In this document: piece after piece, positions 1,811 through 50,793 of the stretch
How positions within the stretch are numbered: the first letter of the stretch is position 1
Layout of the letters: each line of letters begins with the position of its first letter
From: Mobula birostris
Taxonomy: Eukaryota
DNA length: 64,000 nucleotides
Direction of reading: 5' to 3'
NCBI RefSeq assembly: GCF_030028105.1
Contig: NC_092379.1
Span: forward strand, 9,880,272-9,944,271
Notes under the pieces: generated by a model
The model's database searches: none
What the model was told of the DNA's origin: nothing
Seen by the model: the letters and a program-made list of their open reading frames with translations, nothing else
Position numbers and translations under genes: made by a program

Positions 1811-1987
1811 CTTGGGGTCTTCGTCCGGGTTCACGATCTGTCCCTGCCGGTCCATGACCCGATAGATGGGAATGCCGGATATCACGTTGGGCTGAATAAA
1901 CTCCAGCCTGTCCACAAAATCTGCAGAGGCTCCTGGAAACTGGGGCTTCTCATCCAGGGATGTGAACTGCTGCTGGCAAAGCGCATG
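1811..1987 (-). CDS. BCKDHA: BCKDHA coding exon 2 (branched-chain keto acid dehydrogenase E1 alpha)
   Basis: Translates [59 protein letters not shown], matching vertebrate BCKDHA. 177 nt, phase 0/0, (CT)n-TAG acceptor and GTTAGT donor. Exon 3 onward is not seen in the window. Confidence 0.97.
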
Positions 1988-10290: not shown

Positions 10291-10480
10291 GATGCTACTG
10301 CAAGTACGTTTGTTACTACTCTTGTGAATATCTATATAACAATACACCAGACTTTGTTTCTGCACATTGGCAACCCCGGGGCAACAGAGATGCCGGCGTC
10401 CTTCAACCCCGTCGGCGCTTCCCCTCCCCTAGTGTCACGCCGGAACTCCGCTGACACCAGACCCCGCACCACTGACTTAC

Positions 10481-10591
10481 ACTGGCCGAAAGAGCCCGCC
10501 GAAGGGTGGCCGTGAGGAACCTACGGCCGTAAAGACTCCTGCCGAGGCCGCTGCACCCTCGGCCCAGATGCCTGACCACCGCCGCCATCAT
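10481..10591 (-). CDS. BCKDHA: BCKDHA coding exon 1 (mitochondrial transit peptide)
   Basis: MMAAVVRHLGRGCSGLGRSLYGRRFLTATLRRALSAS: Arg-rich with no acidic residues. 111 nt, ends at a GTAAGT donor in phase 0 matching exon 2. Lies in a CpG-rich region. Confidence 0.9.
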
Positions 10592-11468
10592 AACTGTCTG
10601 CCCAGGTTGCTGCCTGCCCCGTGATGTCACTGCCCTTGGAAACCGCTCCCACTACCACACAGCCTTCATCGTCCATCAGAGCTGAACAAAAATCAAATCG
10701 TTATACTGTGAGATAATAAGTAACCGCGAGGAAATCCCTTCTAAACTCTTATTAAATTAAGGCATGAGTTGGTCACCTTTGCTGAAGGGACCTGACTTGA
10801 GCGAAGTGGGCGGGGAGGGGGCTGCGTCCCAGACTCGAGGGTTTTGCTTGGCTGGAGCCACAGCGCGAGCGCTGTGAGGTTGGCTCGAGACCGAAATTAG
10901 TCGACTACAGGCAGAAGCAGATAATGCCGCAGATGATTGGCTAGGGACAAAGAGTGCTGTGGGTGATTGGCTAGAGGCGGAGGGTTCTGTTGGTGACTGG
11001 CTAGAGCAGTGCCGCAGATGATTGGCTAGAGGCGGAGGGTGCTGTGGATGATTGGCTAGAGGCTGAGGGTGCCGTGGGTGATTGGCTAGAGGCGGAGGGT
11101 GCTGCGGATGATTGGCTAGAGGCAAAGGGAGCTGTGGATGATTGGCTAGAGGCTGAGGGTGCTGTGGATGATTGGCTAGAGGCGGTGGGTGCCGTGGGTG
11201 ATTGGCTAGAGGCAAAGGGAGCTGTGGATGATTGGCTAGAGGCGGAGGATGCTGTGGGTAATTGGCTAGAGGCGGAGGGTTATGTGGGTGATTGGCTAGA
11301 GCGGTGCCGCAGATGATTGGCTAGAGACGGAGGGTGCTGCGGATAATTGGCTACAGGCAAAGGGTGCTGTGGGTGATTGGCTAGAAGGAGACGGTGCTGA
11401 AACCGATGGTGGTGCTCGCCGTTGGTCAGGGGTACAAGCAAGGCCCTTGGCGCGGACGGCAGGCGACG
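10592..11468. promoter_or_regulatory. Bidirectional CpG-rich promoter between BCKDHA and EXOSC5
   Basis: Divergent ATGs ~880 bp apart, GC box GGGCGGGG near 10808, CCAAT array. The same head-to-head arrangement is known in mammals. Confidence 0.85.
10925..11390. repeat. 30-bp minisatellite, 16 units, consensus ~GATTGGCTAGAGGCGGAGGGTGCTGTGGRT (CCAAT-box array)
   Basis: ATTGG starts at 10936, 10966, (ACTGG 10996), 11021, 11051, 11081, 11111, 11141, 11171, 11201, 11231, 11261, 11291, 11316, 11346, 11376. Confidence 0.95.
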
Positions 11469-11565
11469 ATGGAAACGGCCAGCGCTGAGGCGCGGATGCT
11501 GCGGCCGTTCTCCTGCGAACACGGCCTCCTGTCCCGGCCCGACGGCTCGGCCTGCTTTACGCAAG
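11469..11565 (+). CDS. EXOSC5: EXOSC5 (Rrp46) exon 1
   Basis: METASAEARMLRPFSCEHGLLSRPDGSACFTQ-G contains the RNase PH-family LSRPDGSA motif. Donor CAAG|GTGGGT, phase 1. An upstream in-frame ATG exists at 11406. Confidence 0.92.
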
Positions 11566-12387
11566 GTGGGTGCTGAGGCGCCGTCTGCCCGCATGGGCAA
11601 CTTCGGAGAGAGCCGAGGCCTCGGGGCTAGAGCGTTGATAGGGTGAAGATGCAGCCCGCGCTCAGTTTAAACTGATCGCATGGTTTTACCGGGCCTTCAC
11701 ACCCCTGTTCAGCCTTGATGTGGAGCAGGCCTATCTGTCTCTAGGTGGACAAGTAGAAAGTGGAGAGCATTTAGTCGGGGGCTGCCCGATGGGGTGGGGG
11801 TGGGTGTATTAAAAAATGCTGTTCACGGATAGTCCCAACTCATGGATTGGAGGCTCTCTGCACAATCCTGAGGGTGCTCCTCCACTTCAACCTGTTCAGG
11901 CCGAATGGCTAATTCTATTAGGTCTTCAAGAGTCAACTGTTTCAAGAGGGAGGTGGAGAGAGAGAGGGCGAGAGGGAGGGGGCCCCTCCCTGGGGCATGT
12001 ATATGATGTGGCATAACCTGGCACGGGAGTCTGGTGTTCTGTGTACAGTCGGTGGATTTAGTGCAGGCAGAGATGGTGGCATCTTTTTAAATGTTCTAAG
12101 ATGCCGACTGTCAGTAGTCTGATTCTCAAAATCATTCATGAAGGGTAGGATTACTGCTGCCAGCAGACAGAGTTTTATACCAGGACTGAGATCTTCATCT
12201 TCGAACACCCTTCTACCTCATTCAACCAAAGGGTGTGCTTTGGCATTGAAGGTGATAGTAAATTTGATCTTCGGTGTCTACCACGTTGATTAAATCAAGA
12301 CAGATTTGATTCTGGATTTTTGCGGTGTGTTAGCCCTCCTTTGTACTGTTGCTATTTACCTGCGCTAATATATGTTTTCAATCGTAG

Positions 12388-12501
12388 GAGACACGACAGT
12401 TCTGGCTGCTGTGTATGGACCAGCAGAGGTGAAAGTGAGCAAGGAGATCTTTGACAAAGCCACACTGGATGTCCTACTCAAGCCAAAAGTTGGATTACCA
12501 G
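12388..12501 (+). CDS. EXOSC5: EXOSC5 exon 2
   Basis: [40 protein letters not shown] acceptor, GTGAGT donor, 114 nt, phase 1/1. Confidence 0.97.
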
Positions 12502-49919: not shown

Positions 49920-50470
49920 CAAACACATACACAACCTCATGCGCGTGCGCGCACACACACACAACCTCATACACATACACCCAATGCCCGCAACCTCATA
50001 CACACACACACACCCACAACCTGATAAACACACAAGCGCCCACCTCATACACACACACACGCCCACAACCTCATACATATACACACACACACACGCAACC
50101 ATGCCCACAACCTTATACACACACACAACCTTATGCACACACACAACCTCATACACCCACACACACCTCTTGCACCCACACAAACACTCACAACCTCATG
50201 CACACACATCCATGCCCACAACACCTCACACACACATGCCCACAACCTCATATACACTCACACAACCTCATACACACATACACACACACACACGTCCACA
50301 ACCTCAAACACACACACACAATCTCTTGCACCCACAACCTCATATACACATACGCACAAAACCTCATACACACACAATCTCTTGCACCCAGACACTCACA
50401 CAGAAATAGACACACACACACAAAACACAGGCACACATATGGTACATACTGAGAGACACAAATGTGCATG
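49920..50470. repeat. CA-rich complex tandem repeat (recurring CACAACCTCATACAC)
   Basis: Direct reading. Confidence 0.9.
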
Positions 50471-50618
50471 ATCTGCCTTCCCCCCACCTCGCTCTCACAA
50501 ACACATAGACAAATATAATTCAGGGCTGGGGGGGGGGCTGGGTAGTGAGTGTCAGAGGCAGTCAGGGGATTGAAGAGCTGGGATGATTAGAGGCGCTTTT
50601 GGGGAGAGAAGATATTGA

Positions 50619-50793
50619 GGGGAGGGAAGGGAGGGAAGGGAGGGAAGGGAGGGAAGGGGGGGAAGGGGGGGAAGGGGGGGAAGGGGGGGAAGGGGGGGAA
50701 GGGGGGGAAGGGGGGGAAGGGGGGGAAGGGGGGAAGGGGGGGAAGGGGGGAAGGGGGGAAGGGGGGGAAGGGGGGGAAGGGGGGAAGGGGGGA
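50619..50793. repeat. Pure-purine (GGAAGGGGG)n / (GGAAGGGAG)n 9-bp repeat
   Basis: Direct reading, ~19 units. Confidence 0.95.

Follow-up and report, generated by a model that had tools for sequence, protein, structure and literature searches.

The human ABO gene has a CBF/NF-Y minisatellite enhancer that consists of one or four 43-bp units at approximately −3.9 to −3.65 kb. This host minisatellite contains a CCAAT box in each unit, varies in unit number, and is bound by NF-Y (PMC7187371). The U3 repeats of LTR12/ERV-9 comprise 5–17 units of approximately 41 bp with sites for NF-Y, GATA-2, and MZF1 (PMC11853044). At the mouse Mrps12/Sarsm locus, a TATA-less CpG-island promoter serves a head-to-head gene pair with same-strand CCAAT boxes about three helical turns apart, as in the class of promoters with 31-bp CCAAT dimers (PMC1802594, PMC4982600). 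At Mrps12/Sarsm, direction depends on the outer boxes, and the contribution of the inner boxes is modest (PMC1802594). Promoter tandem repeats that overlap factor-binding motifs have been genotyped in 120 people, and over 100 of 4,849 promoter repeats were associated with expression or methylation (PMC4857002). This low hit rate is a sobering prior for effects of unit number. BORIS-MS2 was considered as a close relative and rejected, since its CCAAT box forms a separate promoter block (PMC4973313).

The stretch of DNA analysed here ("the window") comprises 64,000 nucleotides from Mobula birostris and contains an array of 16 predicted NF-Y sites with a 30-bp period in the core promoter of the head-to-head gene pair BCKDHA and EXOSC5. 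In contrast to this array, the ABO minisatellite has up to four units, acts as a distal enhancer, is polymorphic within the species, and has a disputed in vivo effect (PMC7187371). The LTR12 repeats contain a similar count of heterogeneous units, each with a CCAAT box and a G-rich motif, but they are retroviral and occur in thousands of dispersed copies (PMC11853044), whereas a genome search with the present array gave a single strong match, and no sign of an LTR was noted around it. The Mrps12/Sarsm and CCAAT-dimer promoters contain 2–4 boxes in nonrepetitive DNA (PMC1802594, PMC4982600); here, 16 boxes arose by tandem amplification at 30 bp. By analogy, the LTR12 U3 repeats are the best available guide to the workings of an array of this kind, and the present array may work like the ABO or LTR12 repeats at most. 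A full-text search by titles and abstract openings, with most subscription journals outside its scope, found no paper on such an array at BCKDHA/EXOSC5 or in sharks and rays. We consider it probable that a functional NF-Y module at this promoter was multiplied through ordinary minisatellite turnover, and that the extra units are largely redundant. The relevant features of the window are as follows.

1811–1987, minus strand: BCKDHA exon 2 (phmmer match to human E1-alpha, E 9e-26; a spliced contig of run X9 jumps here from 10481).
10400–11700, no strand: CpG-island-like, TATA-less region with both first exons (CpG o/e 0.55–1.02 in 200-bp bins versus 0.36 for the window).
10481–10591, minus strand: BCKDHA coding exon 1 (translation; ATG ATG at 10591/10588, GTAAGT donor behind).
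10807–10815, plus strand: GC box of canonical sequence, TGGGCGGGG, between the array and BCKDHA (motif scan with the GC-box consensus).
10843–10931, plus strand: three decayed unit-like pieces without CCAAT, at 10843, 10875, and 10896 (profile of the array's first 17 columns).
10932–11401, plus strand: minisatellite of 14 30-bp and two 25-bp units, consensus GATGATTGGCTAGAGGCGGAGGGTGCTGTG, with CCAAT on the minus strand.
11371–11468, plus strand: EXOSC5 5′ UTR as far as the contig reaches, beginning at the edge of unit 16 (spliced contig 11371–11566 of run X9).
11469–11565, plus strand: EXOSC5 coding exon 1 (translation; splice to exon 2 in run X9; X12 without listed substitution).
12388–12501, plus strand: EXOSC5 exon 2 (phmmer match to human RRP46, E 1.5e-14).

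A motif scan placed the 16 units at 10932–11401 and their cores at 10936–11376. The original prediction described this anatomy correctly. The core pentamer is ATTGG in 15 units and ACTGG in one (10996), the spacing is 30 bp save for two 25-bp units (30, 30, 25, nine times 30, 25, 30, 30), and the array fills about half of the space that separates the two ATGs (470 of 877 bp, 54%). All 16 boxes lie on the same strand, and 13 cores are embedded in TGATTGGCTAG. The NF-Y element with its favoured flanks, which we take to be RRCCAATCR, is represented by 15 of the 16 pentamers and 13 of the 16 nine-mers. Tandem Repeats Finder (TRF) reports the array at 10932–11399 with period 30, 15.9 copies, 79% matches, and a score of 537, the highest among 32 TRF rows in the window; as head-to-tail copies of a unit between 10 and 100 bp, it is a minisatellite. 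Every ATTGG or CCAAT found between the two ATGs belongs to the array. Across the whole window ATTGG is under-represented (146 matches versus 194 expected from shuffles), and the cluster is therefore not an effect of composition. A GC-box-like motif had been claimed for many units. This part did not hold, as the decamer GAGGCGGAGG occurs in 5 of 16 units and the motif scan found no GGGCGG inside the array.

Several other properties of the DNA were considered. A G-quadruplex is a weak candidate driver: the G4Hunter-type mean of the array is 0.74 and its best 25-mer reaches 1.24, versus 1.88 for the GC box outside. A coding role was also rejected. Stop-free frames run through the array since a 30-bp unit, a multiple of 3, preserves the reading frame, but the plus-strand frame has no start and the 25-bp units break the stop-free frames. 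On the EXOSC5 strand, eight units (10933–11324) contain the three-codon upstream frame ATG ATT GGC TAG, which transcripts initiating deep in the array would carry. Elsewhere in the window (49952–50792), a complex CA-rich array is followed by a tract of 20 copies of the 9-bp AGGGGGGGA.

The gene names assigned in the original prediction are upheld by the matches of both second exons. Run X9 was taken as RNA by guess, which the exon–exon joins of both genes support. Its BCKDHA contig spans 10481–10587, continues into exon 2, and ends inside the start codons; contig ends do not map transcription starts. With 877 bp between the ATGs and run X9 providing a spliced contig for each gene, the locus belongs to the bidirectional CpG-island promoters. 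CpG o/e is approximately 0.8 on both flanks of the array, and the motif scan found no TATA match between the two ATGs. The same gene pair has been described as having a bidirectional promoter in human cells, where, as a preliminary result, the two genes differ in their response to hypoxia (PMC3300008). BCKDHA exon 1 encodes a probable mitochondrial targeting peptide.

The last core lies 89 bp from the EXOSC5 ATG (11469, plus strand) and the first core 345 bp from the BCKDHA ATG (10591, minus strand). Because of these distances and the contig start in the last unit, the array is first of all an EXOSC5-proximal element. The proposed co-tuning of both genes finds no support in this placement or in the preliminary hypoxia result for the human pair. 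Judging from the contig, part of the EXOSC5 transcripts must originate at the array or within it. A start near 11371, if real, puts the cores at 11291 and 11316 (units 13–14) into the −40 to −100 zone, and NF-Y peaks 40–100 bp upstream of start sites (PMC3730095). An in-frame upstream ATG at 11406 (11406–11468) might extend EXOSC5 by 21 residues in this genome. We rejected such an N-terminal extension, since it is not kept in organism D and is out of frame in organism E (indels and substitutions in X12 and X14).

This arrangement bears on the idea that the array acts through its length. A 470-bp, NF-Y-loaded, nucleosome-poor block would separate the two starts, provide a broad EXOSC5 start zone, and partially uncouple the genes. 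NF-Y maintains nucleosome depletion at promoters and safeguards the choice of start site (10.1101/369389), the EXOSC5 contig extends into the last unit, and BCKDHA has a separate GC box that lies beyond the array. The preliminary difference in hypoxia response of the human pair (PMC3300008) and the upstream frames in eight units would also fit. However, contigs cannot show start sites and a constraint on array length is not apparent, so that we regard this explanation as very unlikely.

Previous work on NF-Y has shown that its contacts span −7 to +17 around the box, and that NF-Y dimers occur at a minimum distance of 24 bp with a preferred distance of 31 bp (PMC4982600). The spacing in the array suits NF-Y, as had been proposed: 30 and 25 bp both exceed this minimum, near the 31-bp peak, and NF-Y may therefore load many units at once. 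Full loading of the array would be sterically possible. On a 30-bp unit the NF-Y footprint leaves columns 17–21 free, which fall in the central part of the GC-box-like motif. In both 25-bp units the missing bases come from about this stretch, which counts against redundancy of the extra units even though the two losses represent one event.

These distances also bear on the original proposal that the array is a selected, phased copy-number dial, in which many NF-Y trimers would bind in helical phase and unit number would set the output of EXOSC5, of BCKDHA, or the ratio of the two. A spacing that approaches the 31-bp peak and exceeds the 24-bp minimum (PMC4982600), the 15 intact cores, and the mouse Mrps12/Sarsm promoter, whose level and direction depend on four CCAAT boxes (PMC1802594), all speak for this idea. 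On the other hand, 30 bp is off the 31-bp optimum, so that the phase would drift over 16 units, and loss of inner boxes at Mrps12/Sarsm had modest effects (PMC1802594). An ABO allele without three of the four units showed normal transcript levels, and the role of those units is controversial (PMC7187371). Together with the evidence on constraint given below, we consider a copy-number dial unlikely.

The history of the array was examined within this genome and across related organisms. Self-identity is 0.86 at a lag of 295 versus 0.74 at a lag of 30, and the array contains an internal 295-bp duplication, by which units 2–6 resemble units 12–16. Since these two blocks share a multi-unit duplication, the two 25-bp units count as one event. 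The decayed pieces at 10843, 10875, and 10896 score 5.4, 6.0, and 0.3, respectively, and about 11 of 62,800 background positions reach 5.3. A DNA search of the genome that skipped very common words, and thus gives a lower bound, returned one strong match and no second copy of the array. The other matches (67–75%) are to unrelated 32- and 33-bp arrays, and the 19-base unit pattern occurs four times in the genome, always in this array. An origin from a dispersed repeat or an LTR was rejected on these grounds and because no LTR context was seen; by the same lower-bound search the array does not behave as a member of a dispersed, LTR12-like family.

For the cross-organism comparison, contigs were compared from 4 of 24 runs, representing organism labels B, D, and E and the RNA-type run X9; array stretches without cover in any run were not counted as evidence. 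In all three other labels, pieces of the array are continuous with EXOSC5 exon 1. Depending on the piece, these organisms diverged from the present genome by 2.3–9.8%. In organism B, 65 bases at 10972–11038 are replaced by 11; in organism D, 25 bp are missing at 11278 and one contig steps back by 54. Unit content therefore differs between organisms, as anticipated. In organism E, array-like sequence is reached 112 letters after 10806. Judged from these contigs, the array predates the split of the four organism labels, with roughly fixed borders and a rearranged interior. Its persistence through approximately 10% flank divergence with such borders counts against largely redundant units, and its retention in four labels with changing unit content would also suit a copy-number dial.

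The same contigs address the concern that the array is a collapsed or inflated repeat in the assembly. No compared contig spans the whole array, which leaves some room for this explanation. Yet the units differ among themselves by 1–10 bases, and 94–99% of 143 sampled words were found in four runs from one organism A sample, possibly the source. The same type of array occurs at the same place in three other labels with differing unit content, so that it is neither an artefact nor brand-new. We judge an assembly artefact to be extremely improbable.

The original prediction held that the core is conserved while the spacer is free to vary. As a description this is accurate, with unit columns 5–12 forming an invariant stretch; as a sign of selection it is not convincing. 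Variation sits mostly at CpG-related columns, which makes the contrast between core and spacer weak as evidence. When all mismatches are counted, 1 of 44 falls into the pentamer (binomial p 0.003), although the copies share ancestry and are not independent. Counting distinct alleles, the pentamer contains 1 of 19 (p 0.15) and the nine-mer 2 of 19 (p 0.046). After CpG-related changes are set aside (hand count, 15 events), the proposed comparison of core and spacer yields no significant deficit for the pentamer (p 0.26) or the nine-mer (p 0.13).

Differences between organisms were drawn from 40 listed rows of 92, which include 26 of D's 29 in that piece. Among those listed, 10 of 116 array bases differ in organism D (8.6%) versus at least 5 of 103 in the intron (4.9%), and none of the 10 hits ATTGG (20 core bases of 116; p 0.14). 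Also among the rows listed, 4 changes in 141 array bases are private to this genome, versus 2 in 471 flank bases (p 0.03). One of them converts CCAATCA to CCAATTA in unit 15 and weakens its flank. An array that evolves no slower than an intron, and whose core constraint is not significant without CpG changes, is difficult to reconcile with a copy-number dial. The 15 intact cores, the p value of 0.003 for all mismatches, and the unhit pentamers in organism D nevertheless count against redundancy of the extra units.

By invariance of the pentamer window, the present array ranks 5 of 30. Among eight other CCAAT arrays scored, two of which are parts of one locus, two CpG-poor arrays rank 2 of 32 and 4 of 32, and three of eight control-motif arrays rank 1 of 29, 5 of 33, and 6 of 31. 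Equal or better ranks in such arrays also speak against the dial. Two CCAAT arrays adjoin retroelement coding sequence: one with 12 boxes begins where an integrase-like frame ends (L098), and one with 6 boxes where a protease-like frame ends (L049), with weak Pfam matches (E 4e-4 and 4e-3) below the gathering cut-offs. Since invariant cores are found in CpG-poor, retroelement-derived, and control-motif arrays, no promoter role is needed for them, and on the sequence evidence such cores do arise without one. The arrays at L098:1872-2294 and L049:2994-3170 could be useful negative controls for NF-Y array function.

A genome-wide survey covered arrays with four phased TGATTGG at periods 29–33. 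Complete lists comprise 14 loci for a period of 30 bp, 13 for 31 bp, and 10 for 33 bp; at least 8 at period 32 and at least 4 at period 29 were found among 100 of 3,354 and 100 of 825 matches, respectively. There are at least 48 distinct loci including BCKDHA/EXOSC5, and for 47 of them 500 bp of flanking sequence could be read on one side or on both. A CpG-island-like flank (o/e 0.6, GC 0.5) is present at 9 of these 47 loci, and the BCKDHA/EXOSC5 array alone has one on both sides. Among control arrays with shuffled motifs, 0 of 25 measurable loci have such a flank (L124 just misses); two flankless loci, one 125-base stub, a satellite family, and matches beyond those listed were left out of this control. 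The enrichment (Fisher p 0.023; 8 of 46 without the present locus, p 0.044) counts against redundant units. Since promoters are CCAAT-rich, any duplication there may catch a box, and the enrichment is no proof of selection.

Of the nine island-flanked arrays, four lie upstream of a first coding exon (BCKDHA/EXOSC5, RP2, a PFKFB gene, and L137), two lie just inside a likely first intron, and three are repeat-like. With 4 of 47 measured arrays in this position, the formation of CCAAT arrays in promoters recurs, although this subset alone is not significantly enriched (p 0.29). The RP2 array (L093:1859-2285; G000:C8:20491659-20492085) consists of 14 30-bp units with 11 CCAAT boxes approximately 135 bp upstream of the start codon, and exon 1 of this gene matches human XRP2 (E 2e-5). 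It is a close parallel with an unrelated unit sequence. Upstream of the PFKFB-type first exon (E 2e-5) lies a 30-bp CCAAT array of 4.5 copies with two further boxes (L097:1876-2069; G000:C20:1.58 Mb). The presence of similar arrays before RP2 and a PFKFB gene speaks for unit number as a regulatory setting. L137:1933-2074 (G000:C4:87.05 Mb) contains five TGATTGG at 33-bp spacing in a tandem duplication (4.3 copies of 33 bp) within a CpG island, with a TTTGAA element on each side. We take this element to be CHR-like and the first exon to be possibly haspin-like; an atlas search for the gene yielded no usable match. The locus resembles a cell-cycle-type promoter built by duplication.

The survey returned further loci of interest. 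The CCAAT-bearing 30-bp arrays at L099:2082-8622 and L102:1828-3559 contain 224 and 56 copies, respectively, and start a few hundred bases behind apparent CpG-island first exons. Non-repetitive triple CCAAT boxes with 29–33-bp spacing and CpG-rich flanks (L051, L053, L059, L066, and L067) are likely classical multi-CCAAT promoters. An approximately 20-kb C-rich array of 32-bp units (G000:C12:59.236-59.256 Mb; L006-L010 and L047) has CCAAT in most units, no favoured nine-mer, a CpG-poor right flank, and a core that is its least conserved part. An apparent bias of promoter arrays towards period 30 (6 of 13 measurable loci island-flanked versus 0 of 13 at period 31) was dismissed given the small numbers and 3 of 9 at period 33.

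The survey also bears on the simplest alternative, that of a pure passenger: a G-rich minisatellite with a chance CCAAT, one among many in the genome, in which even the units proximal to EXOSC5 have no role. Raw counts cannot serve as evidence for CCAAT enrichment, since the 3,320 phased-triplet matches exceed those of the reversed pattern (289) but compare with 2,944 for the second, shuffled control. A handful of very large arrays dominates such counts; when loci are counted instead, C1, C3, and C4 contain 24 CCAAT arrays versus 12 controls. The similar raw counts, the 38 of 47 measured arrays without a CpG-island-like flank, and the location of most NF-Y-bound repeats of human cells in inactive chromatin (PMC3730095) would all be consistent with a passenger. 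Against it, the array holds all CCAAT between the two ATGs and sits immediately upstream of the EXOSC5 transcript, within a CpG island that has no TATA match. A passenger role for the entire array is thus quite unlikely.

The preferred reading, amplification of a working module by ordinary minisatellite turnover, may be formulated as follows. The starting point would have been a 30-bp EXOSC5-proximal promoter piece with one CCAAT box and a GC-box-like motif. Before the four related organisms split, this piece would have been amplified and reshaped by duplication of several units at a time, by conversion among units, and by edge decay. The 295-bp duplication, the decayed flank units, and the differing unit content in organisms B and D point to such turnover, and the predicted tandem amplification of a promoter module with an NF-Y-type CCAAT box in a head-to-head promoter finds support in these patterns. 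NF-Y very probably binds the units adjoining the EXOSC5 start, and may load many units simultaneously. This loading would keep the promoter nucleosome-poor and would help to fix the EXOSC5 start site; the CpG island and the EXOSC5 contig from 11371 are consistent with a working promoter at this position. The proximal units would be the active ones. The extra units are probably for the most part redundant and tolerated, and changes in unit number would have little or no effect, least of all on BCKDHA. Absence of excess constraint is suggested by the divergence of the array in organism D (8.6% versus at least 4.9% in the intron) and by the generic nature of core invariance.

The array is real, old, and meaningfully placed, and it has at least one close parallel in the same genome; its special function is putative. 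If only the preferred explanation holds, the locus illustrates a route by which tandem duplication can give rise to multi-CCAAT promoters, and provides a case of a housekeeping core promoter that tolerates 16 predicted NF-Y sites. A more far-reaching possibility is that this lineage repeatedly rebuilds NF-Y promoters as long phased CCAAT minisatellites, with unit number as a heritable, fast-changing setting of strength, start spread, or directionality. We hold this to be unlikely; if true, such promoters would constitute a natural copy-number series of NF-Y sites in housekeeping core promoters. Should unit number matter, the BCKDHA/EXOSC5 and RP2 arrays would represent a ready-made natural series for the question of how the number and spacing of NF-Y sites set nucleosome-free length, start choice, and direction at bidirectional promoters.
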